DNA of 32,911 nucleotides from an uncultured Muribaculaceae bacterium (GTDB lineage Bacteria; Bacillota_I; Bacilli_A; RF39; UBA660). The stretch lies in NCBI GenBank assembly GCA_964548645.1, contig CAZJQU010000002.1, positions 1-32,911 on the forward strand, in the 5' to 3' direction. Under the pieces are notes generated by a model, which saw nothing but the letters and a program-made list of their open reading frames with translations, searched no databases and was not told where the DNA came from. This document shows positions 6,778 to 32,851 of this stretch, one piece after another; the first letter of the stretch is position 1, and each line of letters opens with the position of its first letter. Position numbers and translations under genes: made by a program.

Positions 6778-6927
6778 AATTCACCTCCTAAATTATAAAA
6801 ACTCTCATTATCCATAACGAGAGTTTAAAATAACATTAGTTATTTAAGCCCTCGGTAGGATTTACTTTTTTACCTACTGTCTATGGGTATATTTGCTTTT
6901 TCAATTGGTATTATATATCAATATATA
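6778..6927 (-). promoter_or_regulatory. Structured rplJ 5' leader (candidate L10 leader autoregulatory RNA)
   Basis: 150-bp non-coding gap upstream of rplJ. Minus-strand hairpins: GTAGG..CCTAC within CCCATAGACAGTAGGTAAAAAAGTAAATCCTACCGAGGG, and AAACTCTCGTTATGGATAATGAGAGTTT followed by a T-rich run just before the SD. Assigned by position and structure only; no covariance model was run. Confidence 0.45.
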
Positions 6928-24040: not shown

Positions 24041-24469
24041 TTATTTTTTTCTTTGAATTTCAAAAAAATCTTTCAATATTTTTTTAGATTTCTCTTCAAA
24101 AATACCGTATTCAATATCTATTTTGCTATTTGCAACTATTACATCTAAGCTATGCTTATATTTATTATTTCTAGTAGAACAATATACCTTTTTTATTCTA
24201 GTTTCTGCGATAAGTCCCATGCACATTATACAAGGCTCTAAGTTTACAAATAGTAAACAGTCGTTAAGCCTCCAGTCCCCTATTTTTTTACAGGCTTTTT
24301 TTATTGCAATTATTTCGGCATGTGCAAAAGGGTTGTTTTTACTTTCTTTTAGATTATGGGCTCTTGCCACTATTTTATCATCACAAACCACGATAGCACC
24401 AATCGGAGTTTCACCTTTTTTAAAAGCTTTATTAGCTTCTTTTAAGGTCTCTAACATATATTTTTCCAT
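24041..24469 (-). CDS. tadA: tRNA-specific adenosine deaminase
   Basis: HAE...PCIMC zinc-binding deaminase motifs. Start re-called at 24469 (GGAGGTGAA-ATG, MEKYMLETL). The ORF-track extension to 24502 would read through a parS palindrome and has no SD. Confidence 0.9.
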   Translation of the reverse strand: MEKYMLETLKEANKAFKKGETPIGAIVVCDDKIVARAHNLKESKNNPFAHAEIIAIKKACKKIGDWRLNDCLLFVNLEPCIMCMGLIAETRIKKVYCSTRNNKYKHSLDVIVANSKIDIEYGIFEEKSKKILKDFFEIQRKK

Positions 24470-24479
24470 TTCACCTCCA

Positions 24480-24497
24480 ATGTTCCACGTGGAACAT
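24480..24497. other. parS site, CC-type (ATGTTCCACGTGGAACAT; core TGTTCCACGTGGAACA)
   Basis: Perfect 18-bp palindrome matching the parS consensus TGTTNCACGTGNAACA. Lies 10 bp upstream of the tadA SD. Confidence 0.75.
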
Positions 24498-24538
24498 AGC
24501 ACAACTTTAATAATTCATATTTTACACTACTTAAACAT

Positions 24539-24617
24539 AAAAAACGACGTACACGAATCAAATTTGATTGGCTGCTACCTTTCGGTCCTGACCGATTATC
24601 AACAGACTCGTTACGTC
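24539..24617 (-). ncRNA. ffs: Signal recognition particle RNA, short (4.5S-like) form
   Basis: Minus strand GACGTAACGAGTCTGTTGATAATCGGTCAGGACCGAAAGGTAGCAGCCAATCAAATTTGATTCGTGTACGTC followed by GTTTTTT. GGTCAGGACCGAAAGGTAGCAGCC matches the universally conserved domain IV sequence (E. coli GGUCAGGUCCGGAAGGAAGCAGCC). The ends pair into a long hairpin. Firmicute synteny places scr next to tadA/dnaX. Confidence 0.8.
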
Positions 24618-24623
24618 TTATTA

Positions 24624-24652
24624 AGTATAGTTTATAACCACAAAAATATCAA
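24624..24652 (-). promoter_or_regulatory. Promoter of the SRP RNA gene
   Basis: Minus strand TTGATA - 17 nt - TATACT. Six nt downstream is the G that begins the SRP RNA hairpin. Confidence 0.55.
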
Positions 24653-24677
24653 TAAATTTAAGACAACACCTCTTACA

Positions 24678-24695
24678 ATGTTTCACGTGAAACAT
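24678..24695. other. parS site, TT-type (ATGTTTCACGTGAAACAT; core TGTTTCACGTGAAACA)
   Basis: Perfect 18-bp palindrome. The core equals the widely used consensus parS. Confidence 0.75.
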
Positions 24696-24765
24696 ACATT
24701 AGATGAAACAAATAAAGTCTGAGCCATAATAAGGAGTTGTTTGTTTCACATCGATTTTCATACAT

Positions 24766-24789
24766 AAATTATTTCCCGGGAAATAATTT
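24766..24789. other. Noc-binding-site-type palindrome (AAATTATTTCCCGGGAAATAATTT; core TATTTCCCGGGAAATA)
   Basis: Perfect 24-bp palindrome. The core equals the consensus NBS (B. subtilis ATTTCCCGGGAAAT). Confidence 0.65.
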
Positions 24790-24797
24790 GATAAGCT

Positions 24798-24815
24798 ATG
24801 TTCCACGTGGAACAT
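24798..24815. other. parS site, CC-type
   Basis: ATGTTCCACGTGGAACAT, 8 bp from the preceding NBS palindrome. Confidence 0.75.
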
Positions 24816-24900
24816 CGAAATGTTGTTGATCAATTAATGGTATTCAATGTATGTCTGAGTTTTTTGCTTATTTATTATATGCAATTAGAATCGCGCACTA

Positions 24901-24918
24901 ATGTTTCACGTGAAACAT
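24901..24918. other. parS site, TT-type
   Basis: ATGTTTCACGTGAAACAT. Confidence 0.75.
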
Positions 24919-24986
24919 TAAAAATTATATGTGACCTTTTTATAATCGACTATTGTCTATAGGTTATTTTATCATATTTAATTAAG

Positions 24987-25010
24987 AAATTATTTCCCGG
25001 GAAATAATTT
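24987..25010. other. Noc-binding-site-type palindrome
   Basis: AAATTATTTCCCGGGAAATAATTT, identical to the copy at 24766. Confidence 0.65.
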
Positions 25011-25018
25011 AATGAGTT

Positions 25019-25036
25019 ATGTTCCACGTGGAACAT
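25019..25036. other. parS site, CC-type
   Basis: ATGTTCCACGTGGAACAT, 8 bp from the preceding NBS palindrome. Confidence 0.75.
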
Positions 25037-25111
25037 TGTTTTTTTGTTTAATTAAAGAGTTGCTTCTATTTTATATTTGAATAAATTGTTTGTTCTTTTT
25101 TTTGCTGGTTC

Positions 25112-25129
25112 ATGTTTCACGTGAAACAT
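25112..25129. other. parS site, TT-type (palindrome extends to 20 bp, 25111-25130)
   Basis: CATGTTTCACGTGAAACATG. Confidence 0.75.
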
Positions 25130-25199
25130 GAAAGGCAAGGAGAATTTATTATTTATGAATAACAATTATTTTATAAGCATATCTGTTCTGTTGATCAAC

Positions 25200-25223
25200 A
25201 AATTATTTCCCGGGAAATAATTT
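25200..25223. other. Noc-binding-site-type palindrome
   Basis: AAATTATTTCCCGGGAAATAATTT, third identical copy. Confidence 0.65.
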
Positions 25224-25232
25224 AAAGAAAAG

Positions 25233-25250
25233 ATGTTCCACGTGGAACAT
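25233..25250. other. parS site, CC-type, abutting the gyrA stop codon
   Basis: ATGTTCCACGTGGAACAT, 9 bp from the NBS. Its last base is the last base of the gyrA TGA (25250-25252 on the minus strand). Confidence 0.75.
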
Positions 25251-27679
25251 CATTCTTTTATATTAAATACTGCAGTTACTTTTTGATTATCTTTTACATT
25301 TATAAGTCTTACTCCTTGAGTAACCCTACTCATGGTTGATATTTGATTTATTGGAATTCTAATTACCATTCCACTATCTGTTATTATAATTAGATCTTCG
25401 TCTTCTTCTACAATTTTGAATGCAACTATTTTTCCTGTTTTATCTGTTGTGTTTAGAGTTTTAACACCTTTGCTTCCTCTTTTTGTTGTTCTATATTCCT
25501 CTATTACAGTCCTTTTTCCATAACCGTTTTCACTTACAACTAAAACTTTGCTGTTGGCATCTACAATATTTGCATCAATACACAGAGCTCCTGAATCTAG
25601 ATTTATTCCTCTAACGCCAGTTGCCGTTCTTCCCATTATTCTAACTTCTTCTTCGTTGAATCTTACCATCTTTCCAGTTGAGGATGCCATGACTACCTCA
25701 GAATGGCCATTTGTCTTTCTAACAGCAATTAACTTATCGTCCTCTTTTAATTTTATAGCTATCTTTCCAGTTTTCCTTATGTTTTGGAATTCTTCCACCT
25801 TACATCTCTTAACAAGGCCTTGTTGGGTTGCAAATAGTAAACATTTGTTTTCTTCATCTTTTGAAACCTTTAGAATTGATGTTATTCTTTCATCTTTTTC
25901 TAATGGTAGCAAGTTTACAATTGGTAAACCTTTTGATTGCCTGCTAAATTCTGGCACTTCATAACCTTTTATTCTATAGATTAACCCTTTATCTGAGAAA
26001 AGCATCAGAAAGTCATGTGTATTTAACATTAATAGGTTTTCGGCGAAGTCTTCTTCATTTGTAGTCATTCCTTTTACACCAGTTCCGCCCCTATTTTGAG
26101 TTTTGTATGTATCAAGCGGTAACCTTTTAATATATCCTTTATTTGTTAATGTTATTATTATTTCTTCTTGAGGTATTAATTCTTCATCATCTATGTGTTC
26201 TATTGAAGACATATCTATTTTTGTTCTTCTTTCGTTAGCGTACTTTTCCTTTATTTCTAACATCTCTGTTTTAATTATTTCTAGTACTTTTTGAGGATCT
26301 GACAAGATTTCTTCTAATTGTCTGATCAAATTTAAGATATTTGCTAGTTCATCTTCTATTTTACCTCTCTCAAGTCCCGTTAATCTTCTTAGTTTCATTT
26401 CTAATATTGCTTCTGATTGAAGATCGCTTAATGAAAATCTGTTTTTGAGTTCTTCTTTTGCTTTTTGATCATCTTTTGATGTTTTTAGAATTTTAATAAT
26501 TTCATCTATATTATCTAAAGCAATTTTTAAACCTTCTAATATATGTTCTCTTGCTTTTGCTTTTTCTAAATCAAATTGAGTTCTTCTAATTATGATTGTT
26601 TTTTGATAATCGACATAATGTCTATATATATCTTTTAAACCTAGAGTTTTTGGTCTACCGTCTACTAGCATAAGTAGATTTATTCCATAAGATATTTGAA
26701 GGGGAGTATGTTTATATAGATTGTTTAATACAACATTTGCATTTGCTTCTTTTTTTATTTCTATATTTAACTTTATACCTTCTAATGATGATTCATCATG
26801 TAAGTCACTAATGCCATCTAATTGTTTGTTTCTTATTAACTCTCCAATTTTCTTCGTTAAATCGTTAGTTTTACTTACTTGATATGGTACCTCTGTTATT
26901 AAAATTCTGCTTTTTTTGCCCTCTTCTTCTATTATTTCAGCTTTTCCTCTTAATACTATAATTCCTTTTCCTGTTTCATATGCTTTTTTTATTCCACTAT
27001 TTCCTAATATATAACCGTATGTAGGAAAGTCTGGTCCTTTTATAAATTGCATAAGTTCAAGCACTGAAATATCAGGATTATCTATATATTGAATACAAGC
27101 ATCTATTACTTCTCCTAAGTTGTGCGGTGGTATATTCGTTGCCATACCTACTGCTATACCCATGTTTCCATTAACTAATATATTTGGAAATCTAGATGGT
27201 AGTATATTTGGTTCTCTTCTTTGTCCATCGTAATTATCAGAAAAATCTACTGTATTTTTATTTATATCTCTTAATAATTCCATAGAAATCTTTGATAATC
27301 TTGCCTCTGTATAACGAGAAGCCGCTGGACTATCTCCATCTCCAGATCCAAAGTTTCCGTGTCCATCTATTAATGTATGTCTATAAGTAAAGTCTTGTGC
27401 CATCCTTGCCATTGAATCATATATCGCAGAATCTCCATGTGGGTGATAATGTCCCATAACTGCACCAACCGCATTTGCACTTTTTTGATGCTTCTTTTCT
27501 GGTGTCATTCCTTCTTCAAACATAGTATATAGTATTCTTCTATGTACGGGTTTTAGTCCATCTCTAACGTCAGGTATTGCTCTAGATACTATTACACTCA
27601 TCGAATAGTCTAAAAAAGAGTTTTTTATTTCAGTTGATAAGTTAATATCTTCAATTTTATCTATTATTTTTTCTTCCAT
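25250..27679 (-). CDS. gyrA: DNA gyrase subunit A
   Basis: 809 aa. QRDR region HPHGDSAIYD, active-site AASRYTEARL, and a C-terminal beta-pinwheel with a GyrA-box-like QNRGGTGVKG. Confidence 0.98.
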   Translation of the reverse strand: MEEKIIDKIEDINLSTEIKNSFLDYSMSVIVSRAIPDVRDGLKPVHRRILYTMFEEGMTPEKKHQKSANAVGAVMGHYHPHGDSAIYDSMARMAQDFTYRHTLIDGHGNFGSGDGDSPAASRYTEARLSKISMELLRDINKNTVDFSDNYDGQRREPNILPSRFPNILVNGNMGIAVGMATNIPPHNLGEVIDACIQYIDNPDISVLELMQFIKGPDFPTYGYILGNSGIKKAYETGKGIIVLRGKAEIIEEEGKKSRILITEVPYQVSKTNDLTKKIGELIRNKQLDGISDLHDESSLEGIKLNIEIKKEANANVVLNNLYKHTPLQISYGINLLMLVDGRPKTLGLKDIYRHYVDYQKTIIIRRTQFDLEKAKAREHILEGLKIALDNIDEIIKILKTSKDDQKAKEELKNRFSLSDLQSEAILEMKLRRLTGLERGKIEDELANILNLIRQLEEILSDPQKVLEIIKTEMLEIKEKYANERRTKIDMSSIEHIDDEELIPQEEIIITLTNKGYIKRLPLDTYKTQNRGGTGVKGMTTNEEDFAENLLMLNTHDFLMLFSDKGLIYRIKGYEVPEFSRQSKGLPIVNLLPLEKDERITSILKVSKDEENKCLLFATQQGLVKRCKVEEFQNIRKTGKIAIKLKEDDKLIAVRKTNGHSEVVMASSTGKMVRFNEEEVRIMGRTATGVRGINLDSGALCIDANIVDANSKVLVVSENGYGKRTVIEEYRTTKRGSKGVKTLNTTDKTGKIVAFKIVEEDEDLIIITDSGMVIRIPINQISTMSRVTQGVRLINVKDNQKVTAVFNIKE

Positions 27680-29739: not shown

Positions 29740-30849
29740 TTATTTTTCGGTTACTTTTTTGTTTTTTACATTAAATATTTTTGAATCCTTTAGTAATTTA
29801 TCGTCTAAACTATTTAAATCTGTTGTAGTTATGAAGGTTTGAATGTCATTTTTTATATATTTTATTATATTGTTTTGTTTTTTTTCATCGAGTTCGCTAA
29901 ATATATCATCTAATAGTAAAACTGGATATTCTCCGGTTATTTCTTTGAATATTTCGATTTCTGCTAGTTTTAAACACACCATGATTATTCTTTGTTGTCC
30001 TTGAGAGGCATGATTTCTAATATCATTTTTATTTAGATAAAATATTAGGTCATCTCTGTGTGGACCGTTTACTGTCATTCCTAAAAATAAATCTCTTTTT
30101 ATATTGGATGTTAATTTTTTAAATAGAATCTCTCTTATTTCATCTTCGTTTTTTAAATTAGTTATATCTATATTTGTTTTGTATTCTATATCCAAATTTC
30201 CTTCTTCGAATATAGTTTTATATATTTTTTTTGTTTTTTGATTGAGTTTTTCTATAAAATCAATTCTTTTTTTGTAAATTTCGGTCCCTTTTTTTGAAAT
30301 TTGTTCATTTATGATAGAAAGATAGGTCAAATCAAGTTCTTCCATTTTCTTGTTTTTTATGTATTCATTTCTATTTTTTACTAATAAGTTATATTCATTT
30401 AATATTGATAAGTATTTATTATCTATTTGTGCGATTTCTATATTTAAGAACTTTCTTCTAGATGAGGGATTTCCTTTTATTAAATCTAAATCGCTGGGAA
30501 AAAACATTATTACGTTGAAGTTTGAAATGTAATGACTTATTTTCTTTATTATAATATCGTTTATTTTTACACTTTTTCCCTTTGTATTTATTAATATTTC
30601 AAATTTTTTTGTTTCTTTTTGTAATTCTAATTCGCCTTTTATCTTAGTTGCTTGTAAACCTTCTTTTATTAAATGTTTATCTATGTTTATTCTATGAGAC
30701 TTAGTTATAGCCAAAACATATATACTTTCTAATATATTTGTTTTTCCTACCGCATTATCTCCATAAAATATATTTATATTGGGAGAAAATTGTAGTTTTA
30801 AATCCTCATAATTTCTAAAGTTTTTTAATTCTAATTTGTTTAGTTTCAT
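29740..30849 (-). CDS. recF: DNA replication and repair protein RecF
   Basis: 369 aa. Walker A GDNAVGKTN, signature SQGQQR, Walker B LLLDDIFSELD. Confidence 0.93.
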   Translation of the reverse strand: MKLNKLELKNFRNYEDLKLQFSPNINIFYGDNAVGKTNILESIYVLAITKSHRINIDKHLIKEGLQATKIKGELELQKETKKFEILINTKGKSVKINDIIIKKISHYISNFNVIMFFPSDLDLIKGNPSSRRKFLNIEIAQIDNKYLSILNEYNLLVKNRNEYIKNKKMEELDLTYLSIINEQISKKGTEIYKKRIDFIEKLNQKTKKIYKTIFEEGNLDIEYKTNIDITNLKNEDEIREILFKKLTSNIKRDLFLGMTVNGPHRDDLIFYLNKNDIRNHASQGQQRIIMVCLKLAEIEIFKEITGEYPVLLLDDIFSELDEKKQNNIIKYIKNDIQTFITTTDLNSLDDKLLKDSKIFNVKNKKVTEK

Positions 30850-30850
30850 C

Positions 30851-32197
30851 TTATTTTCCTAAACAGAAATTACTGAATATTTCGTCAATTAGTTCTTCTT
30901 TGTAGTTTTTTCCAATAACGTCTCCTAATAGTTCCCAAATTTGTTTTAAGTCTATTTCTAATATATCTACTGGTAATTCTTCTTTTAAACCTATCTTTAT
31001 ATCTTCTATATTAACTATTGTTTTCTTTAATGTGCTGATTTGTCTAGTATTAAAGAGATAATTCGGATCTTTTTTATTTATTTCATTTATATTAAATTTA
31101 TCTATAATTTTATCTTTTAAATTTGTTATATCATTATTTAAAGCACTTATTTCTACAATATCTCCGGATAGCATTGTCTTATCTATCTTTTGTTCTAAGT
31201 CCATTTTATTTATTACGATTATTCTGTTTTTATCTTTTGTTCTCTCTAATAGTTCTATATCTTCTTTTTCTAAAATTTCATTATTATTTAAAACTAATAT
31301 TATAAGGTCTGATTCATCTATCAAATTCAAAGATTTATCCACACCAATTTTTTCTATTATATCTTTTGTGTCTCGTATTCCGGCAGTATCCGTTATATTA
31401 AATAGTATAGAGTTTATTGAAATTGTTCCTTCTACTATATCTCTAGTAGTTCCAGCGATATCGGTAACTATTGCTTTATCTTCATCTATTAATTTATTTA
31501 ATAAACTGCTTTTTCCAACGTTTGGTTTTCCTAAAATAACAGTGTTTATTCCGTTTTTTATTATTTTTCCATTTTCGCTTTCTTTTATTATTTTAACTAT
31601 TTCTTCTTCTATAACCTTTATTTCTTTATCTATCATTTCTTTTGTTATTACTAATATGTCTTCGTATTCAGGATAGTCTATATTTGCTTCTATATTAGAT
31701 AATATTTTTGATAGTTTACTTCTTAAGTTTTCAATCATAGTTGAAATATTACCTTTAATTCCGTTAATTGCTAGTTTTCTAGCTGATTCTGTTTTTGAAT
31801 TAATTAATTCCATAATTGATTCTGCTTCGATTAAATCTATTCTTCCATTTAAAAATGCCCTTTTTGTGAATTCTCCTGGTTCAGCAAGTCTTGCTCCATT
31901 TTCTATTAATAATTCTAATATTTTATTTGTAGTTGTTATCCCGCCATGACAATTAATCTCAATAATATCTTCTTTTGTGAAGGTTTTAGGCGCTCTCATC
32001 AAACTTACTAAAACTTCGTCTATTATTGTGTTTTTTTCTTTTATAAAACCATAATTAATAGTATGACTTTCTATATTAGTCAAATCTTTACTAAATATTT
32101 TATTTACTATCTCTATTGCTTCTTTACCGCTTATTCTTATTATAGATATTGCTCCGATTCCCAAAGCTGTAGATATTCCTGCGATTGTGTCGTACAT
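30851..32197 (-). CDS. mnmE: tRNA uridine-5-carboxymethylaminomethyl modification GTPase MnmE
   Basis: N-terminal DTIAGIST, G-domain GKPNVGKSSL / DTAGIR / NKMD, and the C-terminal CxGK tail (FCLGK). Start preferred at 32197 (GGGTGA-TTTT-ATG). Confidence 0.95.
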   Translation of the reverse strand: MYDTIAGISTALGIGAISIIRISGKEAIEIVNKIFSKDLTNIESHTINYGFIKEKNTIIDEVLVSLMRAPKTFTKEDIIEINCHGGITTTNKILELLIENGARLAEPGEFTKRAFLNGRIDLIEAESIMELINSKTESARKLAINGIKGNISTMIENLRSKLSKILSNIEANIDYPEYEDILVITKEMIDKEIKVIEEEIVKIIKESENGKIIKNGINTVILGKPNVGKSSLLNKLIDEDKAIVTDIAGTTRDIVEGTISINSILFNITDTAGIRDTKDIIEKIGVDKSLNLIDESDLIILVLNNNEILEKEDIELLERTKDKNRIIVINKMDLEQKIDKTMLSGDIVEISALNNDITNLKDKIIDKFNINEINKKDPNYLFNTRQISTLKKTIVNIEDIKIGLKEELPVDILEIDLKQIWELLGDVIGKNYKEELIDEIFSNFCLGK

Positions 32198-32213
32198 AAA
32201 ATCACCCAATAAC

Positions 32214-32222
32214 ATTATAACA
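32214..32222 (-). promoter_or_regulatory. Candidate extended -10 promoter for mnmE-recF
   Basis: Minus strand TGTTATAAT in the jag-mnmE gap. It is preceded by the weak hairpin AGAGT-TAAT-ACTCT followed by TTTTTT. Confidence 0.35.
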
Positions 32223-32242
32223 TTAAAAAAAGAGTATTAACT

Positions 32243-32851
32243 CTATTTTTTCTTTATTGTTATACATCTATTTGGTTCTTCACCCACAGATTCTGTAGTA
32301 ATTCCACCAATCTCTGAACATATGCTGTGAACTAATCTTCTTTCGTATGAGTTCATTGGATCAAGTGTTACTTCAACTCCAGATTTTTTTACATCGAATG
32401 CTATTCTTTTTATATTTCTTTCTAAGTTTCTTTTTTGTTTTTCTCTATAATCCTCAACATCTATTATAATATTTACTTTAAATCCTGTATTGTTTTGAAT
32501 AGAACTCCTTACTATTATCTGAATTGAATCTAGTGTTTGTCCGTTTCTACCAATTAAAATTGAGTTTTTATCTGAAAATAAAGTAAATTTTAAATGATCA
32601 TCTCTCTTTTTTGCCTCAATATTTGCATCTATTCCCATTTTTGAGGTTATTTCGAGAACCAGTTCTTTTACATAGTCTATCATGTCATCTTTTAATACTG
32701 CAGTTAGTTTAGTTTTTTTTGATTTAAATAAACCAGATGTTTCTTCTGTATCTTTGAAAAATACGTCTTTTTCTGAAACACTTAATTCATAAAACATTTT
32801 TTCTTTTGCCAAATCTAAGTTTTTTTCTACATATTCATAAGTTTTTATCAT
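32243..32851 (-). CDS. jag: RNA-binding protein Jag/KhpB (Jag_N, KH, R3H domains)
   Basis: 202 aa. KH-like IGRNGQTLDSIQ and R3H ERRLVH motifs. Synteny yidC-jag-mnmE. Confidence 0.85.
   Translation of the reverse strand: MIKTYEYVEKNLDLAKEKMFYELSVSEKDVFFKDTEETSGLFKSKKTKLTAVLKDDMIDYVKELVLEITSKMGIDANIEAKKRDDHLKFTLFSDKNSILIGRNGQTLDSIQIIVRSSIQNNTGFKVNIIIDVEDYREKQKRNLERNIKRIAFDVKKSGVEVTLDPMNSYERRLVHSICSEIGGITTESVGEEPNRCITIKKK

Follow-up and report, generated by a model that had tools for sequence, protein, structure and literature searches.

The DNA analyzed here, called the window, is the whole 32,911-nucleotide stretch (positions 1 to 32,911) of contig CAZJQU010000002.1 from a metagenomic organism with a GC content of about 28%. 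The element in question is an array of short palindromes downstream of gyrA that match the recognition sites of two ParB-family proteins, namely parS for ParB and the Noc-binding site (NBS) for Noc. All genes of the window are encoded on the minus strand and, following transcription, are ordered jag, mnmE, recF, gyrB, gyrA, the array, ffs, a lone parS site, tadA, dnaX, ybaB, recR and holB; genes upstream of the array that were first labeled dnaA and dnaN were shown by Pfam to be mnmE and recF. The upstream flank is formed by gyrA (25250..27679, minus strand), which anchors the array and is conserved in this role throughout the lineage, and the downstream flank by tadA (24041..24469, minus strand). 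The gene for the small signal recognition particle RNA, ffs, was identified at 24531..24627 on the minus strand (RF00169, 55.5 bits, E = 1e-9).

The whole window was scanned at up to two mismatches with two reference motifs, the 16-bp palindrome TGTTNCACGTGNAACA, which is used as parS (PMC8299390), and the NBS sequence ATTTCCCGGGAAAT given in papers on Noc (PMC7383237, PMC8429893). The interval 24480-25250 holds seven perfect parS and three perfect NBS, all ten between 24481 and 25249. No further match to either motif was found in the 32.9-kb window at this threshold. The chance expectation for the window is 0.08 parS and 0.04 NBS, and the observed counts were reached in none of 100 shuffles.

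Two variants of parS are present. The TT variant, TGTTTCACGTGAAACA, has its cores at 24679, 24902 and 25113, while those of the CC variant, TGTTCCACGTGGAACA, are at 24481, 24799, 25020 and 25234, so that TT and CC strictly alternate along the DNA. The NBS 14-mers are at 24771, 24992 and 25205. With one flanking A and T, each of the seven parS becomes an 18-bp palindrome. The NBS are each part of a 24-bp palindrome, AAATTATTTCCCGGGAAATAATTT, that is the same in the three copies. Counted from the gyrA side, the palindromes are parS CC3 (25233..25250, ATGTTCCACGTGGAACAT), NBS3 (25200..25223), parS TT3 (25112..25129, ATGTTTCACGTGAAACAT), parS CC2 (25019..25036), NBS2 (24987..25010), parS TT2 (24901..24918), parS CC1 (24798..24815), NBS1 (24766..24789) and parS TT1 (24678..24695). 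Read along transcription, the module order is [CC-NBS-TT]. The lone site, parS CC0 (24480..24497), is of the CC type and sits beyond ffs from the three modules. The edge of TT1 is 26 bp upstream of the -35 hexamer of a candidate ffs promoter (TTGATA-17-TATACT, 24624..24652, minus strand), which was predicted from a match to 10 of 12 consensus positions and is part of the context, not of the array.

Measured from center to center, TT-type parS and NBS are 91, 89 and 91 bp apart, and NBS and CC-type parS 29, 29 and 30 bp. Like elements recur after 223 and 211 bp (TT), 221 and 213 bp (NBS) and 221 and 214 bp (CC). Between palindrome edges the spacers are 70/68/70 bp and 8/8/9 bp within modules and 85/75 bp between them. 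An earlier reading of this DNA, the original prediction, had described three [parS-TT, NBS, parS-CC] modules, and every coordinate and distance in it was reproduced. It had also noted that the palindromes with their A..T and AAAT..ATTT flanks are identical in every copy in the window, and that the CC-type site at 24480 lies across ffs without an NBS partner; both observations held.

Spacer divergence within the array

Like spacers were aligned in the same orientation by semi-global and local alignment, and gave z values of -1.3 to +0.9 relative to shuffles. In the 30 nt beside the sites, identity was 0.28-0.48, compared with about 0.32 expected from composition. Tandem Repeats Finder reported nothing in the window array, and detected the positive control, a 126-bp repeat of a relative. 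The array is not a recent tandem repeat. The module alignment and the repeat search are thus in agreement with the original prediction, which had seen no alignable similarity between the spacers and had argued on that ground against a recent tandem duplication. A 72-nt repeat at 83% identity, returned by a repeat search, was considered as residual homology and rejected: nearly all of it consists of two palindromes, and identity in the flanks of the sites is at background.

The same array is present in four short assemblies of this species, at 99.3-99.97% identity. Single-nucleotide polymorphisms and poly-A indels within the species are few and fall mostly in the spacers; strain L002 has a C>T change in the core of parS TT2. 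With 7 substitutions and 2 indels in 776 bp, strain polymorphism has no power as a test of constraint and was set aside.

Arrays in related genomes

When one genome per GTDB species was scanned with GyrA, 49 loci were recovered from metagenome-assembled genomes of uncultured gut 'Bacilli/Tenericutes'. These include Mycoplasma sp. CAG:956, Clostridium sp. CAG:417 and Candidatus Coprovivens, the last of which has been placed in the GTDB order RF39 (PMC8035907). The scan found no close relative at this sampling of one genome per species, the best GyrA identity being 66%. About 40 of the 49 species-level relatives have at least two perfect parS directly downstream of gyrA, and the other Firmicutes caught by the scan showed no such array after gyrA. 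Most parS (105 of 118 in the 30 full-length loci of 22 kb) lie in the first kb after gyrA. NBS are interleaved with parS in 14 species of this set. In 30 loci of the more distant relatives (L005-L052), extra NBS recur past the end of gyrA at two distances that are roughly kept, 10 of them at +2-3 kb and 15 at +6-8 kb. Neither position has an NBS in the window, and in the roughly 43 kb covered for the species the only NBS are the three of the array.

Across related species the period of the array ranges from 28 to about 400 bp, and both the order of the sites and the parS variant differ freely. Arrays of parS only have periods of 28, 38, 53, 74 and 107 bp, and parS-NBS alternations have periods of 61-126 bp (up to eight units among those of 72-126 bp); with P for parS and N for NBS, P-N-P modules and N-N doublets also occur. 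A three-element module like that of the window, [P-36-N-84-P], is present twice in L034. Spacers are 84-100% identical in the regular arrays of L009, L015, L018, L019, L030, L034 and L039, and likewise in those of L050, L052, L107, L151, L168, L171 and L196. These regular arrays are ordinary recent tandem repeats. Two of the parS arrays are particularly dense: L168:5104-5347 has seven perfect parS with a 38-bp period, the 22-nt spacers between them being identical, and a single NBS after the last, and L026:12569-12668 is a parS-only array of four imperfect sites at a 28-bp period.

A scan of metagenome contigs with the pattern NBS-N(4-34)-parS found at least 120 loci. Among the matches listed, 118 of 120 are of low GC (19-35%) and most have gyrA, tadA or dnaX beside the sites; L185 and L195 alone stand apart. 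Given this context of the matches listed, parS and NBS in close pairs essentially mark out this lineage and this locus. In L185 (GC 0.49), parS and NBS are 47 bp apart beside noc-like and parB genes, and in L195 (GC 0.38) parS-29-NBS doublets lie by a GyrA gene split into two open reading frames (ORFs), which may reflect another genetic code or a frameshift. Site statistics for the lineage were compiled from 146 non-redundant loci with 469 parS and 299 NBS. At least 146 non-redundant loci carry these arrays, and the lineage is very diverse.

The closest relatives were found through TadA, at 68-76% identity. L086 has the plan gyrA-[P-53-N-36-P]-ffs-P-tadA and L087 the plan [P-28-N-34-P]-ffs-[P-28-N-35-P]. 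In L090 (5409-5966) the plan is [P-34-N-159-P]-ffs-[P-34-N-159-P], with a single ffs between two modules that are 100% identical, including the 143-nt spacer. The ends of this repeat coincide with the outer parS palindromes, which suggests that whole modules were copied, anchored at parS. Further variants similar to these three plans were seen in L219-L223. In the window, the layout resembles that of L086 except that the module occurs three times.

The identical L090 modules on either side of ffs, with repeat ends at the outer palindromes, could also be taken as a sign of concerted evolution, in which palindrome-targeted gene conversion or recombination keeps the copies identical while the spacers diverge. 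Nevertheless, the L090 event copied the spacers as well, and so represents duplication or conversion of a whole module and not of the motifs alone. In the window, identity drops to background right at the palindrome edges. The copies there equal the lineage consensus, as purifying selection would explain without any conversion. Concerted evolution is accordingly regarded as very improbable, and the motif-targeted gene conversion offered in the original prediction is unnecessary.

Site identity, order and spacing

Another explanation holds that the geometry itself is selected, that is, that the module distances, the 211-223-bp period, helical phasing and the TT/CC alternation together define a higher-order ParB/Noc structure. 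The evidence set out in this section makes it unlikely, although one of its elements, the proximity of NBS to parS, was borne out. In the motif-unbiased GTDB set of 14 independently sampled species, NBS are closer to parS than under random placement inside the array, with a median of 35 bp compared with 62 +/- 11 bp (0 of 2000 permutations). Placement of NBS close to parS is non-random, and is the only geometric trait with evidence of being favored.

The short parS-NBS gap is also constant within old arrays whose long spacers have diverged. It is 12 bp in five of five copies in L113, 13/13/14 bp in L097, 22-24 bp in L131 and 14/13/13 bp in the window. As proof of constraint this constancy was rejected, since by our own estimate a target of 12-14 bp is expected to escape indels anyway. 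The tightness of the long spacers in the window is a third point in favor of selected geometry and is weighed below, with the preferred interpretation.

Beyond these traits, no spacing, period or order is common to the species. The long NBS-to-parS step of about 91 bp in the window is 33-188 bp in its closest relatives, and the two inter-module spacers of the window itself differ by 10 bp (85 versus 75). Steps of 29, 91 and 93-103 bp in the window are not whole helical turns. Distances between parS and NBS in the lineage spread over 21-58 bp with no sharp phase, and the Rayleigh test gave p = 0.19 in the unbiased set; a p of 0.002 from the metagenome set was discarded because the distances there are restricted by the search pattern itself. 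Helical phasing is unsupported on these grounds, and so is the earlier suggestion of repeats at 20-21 helical turns. In addition, a fixed phasing would have no obvious mechanical role, since sliding clamps leave their loading sites (PMC8429893).

The flanks of the sites are conserved across the lineage. The base before the parS core is A (A..T flank) in 99% of the 469 sites, and NBS flanks are AAAT/ATTT in about 80% of the 299. The flanks consequently belong to the functional sites, and their identity within the window is no evidence of copying. Selection on site identity, order and spacing had been proposed for the array. The lineage-wide flanks support the part on identity, but comparison of the locus across species showed that order and spacing vary freely and are to a large extent arbitrary.

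Position 5 of parS in the lineage is T in 71%, C in 26% and A in 2% of sites. It varies within arrays and has no association with NBS adjacency. The alternation of TT and CC and the pairing of CC with NBS hold within the window, but neither is a rule of the lineage, and triplication of a single [CC-NBS-TT] module would yield both. Taken as a whole, the earlier interpretation is partly supported, most of the conserved geometry being explained by descent from one duplicated module.

Position near the replication origin

A contig of the same species, L093, overlaps the window over 3459 bp at 98.6% nucleotide identity and encodes an identical Jag protein. It runs past the window end through yidC, rnpA and rpmH, and then into a divergent dnaA-dnaN-mnmG-rsmG-noc arm. 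Three DnaA boxes, two of them perfect and the third off by one base, lie between dnaA and rpmH. On this evidence the probable oriC is 9-10 kb from the array. In most genomes of the more distant relatives, dnaA is 5-6.5 kb upstream of gyrA.

The origin arms (window 29740-32851 and L093:1-10000) are swapped relative to the order in B. subtilis and in the more distant relatives. The swapped order is rpmH-rnpA-yidC-jag-mnmE, then recF-gyrB-gyrA, and dnaA-dnaN, then mnmG-rsmG-noc. Such an order resembles the outcome of an inversion across the origin. In L093, dnaN is split into two ORFs of 260 and 84 amino acids (aa), possibly through an assembly error.

A Noc-type protein of the same species

Outside the window, the species carries a Noc-type ParB-family gene beside rsmG (L093:1659-3029, minus strand, 457 aa). 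Among solved structures, those of Noc match it best (7NG0, 7NFU and 7OL9; E = 5e-57), with Spo0J behind them (6SDK; E = 9e-47). Against TIGR04285 the protein reaches 272 bits, short of the curated cut-off (315). ParB box II and the cytidine triphosphate (CTP) motifs are largely intact, with GERRYKA in place of GERRWRA, and an acidic, Asn-rich linker of about 190 aa precedes the C-terminal domain. Its specificity positions are Q173, K179, S184 and R201. At these positions Noc has Q-K-K-R and ParB R-T-A-G, and a single lysine at 179 or 184 suffices as the permissive residue (Jalal et al. 2020, PMC7383237). Having Q173, K179 and R201, with K179 as the permissive lysine, the protein should read NBS and not parS.

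The Noc-type protein starts about 22 residues late, its alignment beginning at residue 25-27 of the solved Noc chains, and the reading frame allows at most five further residues upstream. In B. subtilis Noc about 39 aa stand before the PNRFQPR-type motif; only 14-19 aa precede PNRFQPR in all 120 closest homologues and in about 95% of 149 clusters formed at 50% identity. This short N-terminus, GERR(Y/F)KA, Q-K-x-R and the long acidic linker are traits of the family in the 120 homologues and 149 clusters. At 50% identity the associated family falls into more than 149 clusters, with a median length of 485 aa and a range of 242-834 aa. The membrane helix, whose length was taken as about 10-15 aa, was present in all Noc homologues examined by Adams et al. 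and is required for function (PMC4331003; also PMC8429893).

A SpoIIR-domain gene is found near the noc locus in relatives (L095:18774-19307 and L216:17618-18157), which indicates that this reduced-genome lineage keeps at least one sporulation-associated gene.

Interpretation as a probable composite centromere

The array is probably the origin-proximal chromosomal centromere of an RF39-like low-GC gut member of the Bacilli, a composite in which loading sites for two ParB-family CTP clamps are combined and which derives from an old module triplication. The seven 18-bp parS palindromes would be nucleation and loading sites for ParB. The Noc-type paralogue would load at the three 24-bp NBS palindromes, each of which has a parS palindrome 8-9 bp away. 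By analogy with ParB and Noc of B. subtilis, each dimer is predicted to nucleate on its site, bind CTP, close into a clamp and slide onto the flanking DNA, as in the CTP-clamp mechanism described for both proteins (PMC7053999, PMC8429893). Several sites should raise the loading rate. Spreading of S. aureus Noc is reported to cover 8-10 kb (PMC5540599). If the clamps here spread over the known 8-20 kb, ParB and the Noc-type protein would cover one and the same stretch of DNA and reach oriC. The center distance of 29-30 bp leaves 8-9 bp between the palindromes, and both sites can probably be occupied at once. A ParB that reads parS is expected in these organisms from the perfect, lineage-wide conservation of the parS sites.

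Module duplication is frequent at this locus across the lineage. A [parS-NBS-parS] module, which the nearest relatives carry once or twice, would have been triplicated long ago in the ancestry of the window. After duplication, purifying selection for protein binding would have held the palindromes while the spacers drifted to random. The TT/CC alternation and the similar module lengths would then be mostly inherited from the founding module.

Several findings weigh against this interpretation. No residual spacer homology exists in the window to prove the triplication, the case for which comes from the relatives. The 70/68/70-bp spacer of the window is the tightest long spacer among the arrays with random-level spacer identity, whose long spacers are mostly very unequal, for example 209-239 bp (L113), 172-359 bp (L097), 79-117 bp (L199) and 80-173 bp (L142). 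Neutral drift at the strain indel:substitution ratio of 2:7 predicts larger differences in length, with a rough p of about 0.03-0.07 that varies with the indel rate assumed. The tightness is unusual but, as a post hoc observation, not decisive. The Noc-type protein lacks the N-terminal amphipathic membrane-targeting helix, which makes classical membrane-mediated occlusion unlikely. Motif and phmmer scans found no canonical ParB gene (R173/G201 type) in the lineage loci examined, and the ancestral noc-soj-spo0J adjacency was absent from four noc loci (the window species and three relatives). A search of representatives seeded with the lineage Noc returned the same Noc-type family in all 150 best clusters and no ParB, a ranking that cannot reach ParB without a lineage bait.

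A bolder version of the composite centromere is that in RF39-like gut Bacilli a Noc paralogue, having lost its anchor and acquired a long acidic linker, now serves at the centromere. It would be co-loaded with ParB from NBS fixed a few bp from parS, the close parS-NBS pairing being selected for direct cross-talk between the clamps. This is possible, but we hold it only tentatively and with more doubt than belief. If it were true, the array would be a two-protein chromosomal centromere, with a possible role in control of clamp flux, SMC loading or origin firing, or as a substitute for a missing ParA. Arrays that grow and shrink by tandem duplication would then tune dosage.

Relation to known systems

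In B. subtilis, about ten parS are scattered over hundreds of kb. By comparison, seven sites here occupy 770 bp of one intergenic gap, and the arrays of the lineage are often tandem repeats. What the array has in common with chromosomal ParABS (parS/Spo0J of B. subtilis and others) is the palindrome TGTTNCACGTGNAACA, an origin-proximal position, several copies and, presumably, CTP-dependent clamp loading and spreading (PMC7053999, PMC8299390). It differs in that the sites are interleaved with those of a second ParB-family protein, and in that no parB gene was located in the loci examined. The Noc/NBS systems of B. subtilis and S. aureus share the NBS core ATTTCCCGGGAAAT, the Noc-type specificity residues and the gene position beside rsmG, but NBS there are spread through the origin-proximal chromosome, missing near the terminus, and not arrayed a few bp from parS. 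The lineage protein further departs from known Noc by having no membrane helix (PMC4331003), by GERR(Y/F)KA in place of GERRWRA and by its long acidic linker.

The head-to-tail repeats of the relatives, with one ParB-family site per unit and periods of 28-126 bp, resemble the sopC centromere of plasmid F, and their copy number appears to vary by duplication. In sopC, 12 repeats of 43 bp have one SopB site each. sopC is treated in PMC3597684. Unlike sopC, the arrays described here are chromosomal and have two site types for two paralogues, and in the window the repeats have decayed to the sites only. In the mParSpot labels, too, parS and NBS each load their own paralogue, independently and without cross-reaction (PMC11109969). 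Those are synthetic, placed at separate loci and used in human cells, whereas the sites here are natural and juxtaposed.

The components (parS, NBS and a Noc-type paralogue) are thus known, while their arrangement appears to be new; the unexpected part would be a lineage-wide composite centromere with an anchor-less Noc. Searches of the literature turned up no natural array in which parS and NBS are interleaved, no partition system described from RF39 and no Noc family lacking the membrane helix. ParB and Noc are model CTP-switch clamps and have been treated as separate, with ParB at the centromere and Noc at scattered membrane-tethering sites. Loading sites side by side, together with an anchor-less Noc, suggest a Noc function other than membrane-mediated nucleoid occlusion. 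As natural test sequences, the arrays could be used to ask how the two clamp types affect each other on DNA, whether by interaction, blocking or assistance. Moreover, the series from fresh tandem repeats to sites-only arrays in the lineage would show chromosomal centromeres gaining and losing sites.

Candidate transcript features around the palindromes

The positions of several palindromes relative to genes raise the alternative that they act mainly in RNA or transcription, as terminators, processing hairpins or operators for gyrA, ffs and tadA. The CC3 core abuts the gyrA stop codon (TGA 25250-25252, minus strand), and the last base of CC3 is the first base of the stop. Together with the following UUUUCUUU (25232-25251, minus strand), CC3 is predicted to form a hairpin of -16.2 kcal/mol (z -2.7), and the two look like a candidate intrinsic terminator directly after the gyrA stop. 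A T-run after the equivalent of CC3 is present in L090 but not in L086 or L087. CC2 has a T-run next to it on the plus strand and looks like a candidate terminator on that strand.

The ribosome-binding site of tadA (AACAT-TGGAGG) follows CC0 directly, and the end of CC0 lies 11 nt upstream of the ATG. A CC0-like placement at this ribosome-binding site was also seen in L086, L087, L219, L220 and L222; of the lineage loci, only about 12% have it. A candidate extended -10 promoter, TGTAAAAT, was read by eye about 25 nt upstream of CC0 (region 24470-24530, minus strand); with this element upstream, the CC0 palindrome would fall in the tadA 5' leader.

Nevertheless, T-runs are found at some sites only, and the first parS of relatives is often without one. 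All ten sites match the protein-binding consensus exactly, NBS have no terminator features, and a cognate Noc-type protein is encoded. It is therefore highly improbable that the palindromes act mainly at the RNA level, and a secondary terminator role of CC3 is compatible with the centromere interpretation.

The spacers have no ORF with the features of a real gene, their promoter-like matches are at shuffle level (12 versus 9.0 +/- 3.4), and the Rfam scan for structured RNA in the spacers found ffs only. Elsewhere in the window, and unrelated to the array, a ribosomal protein L10 leader was identified at 6786-6904 on the minus strand (RF00557, 61.5 bits).

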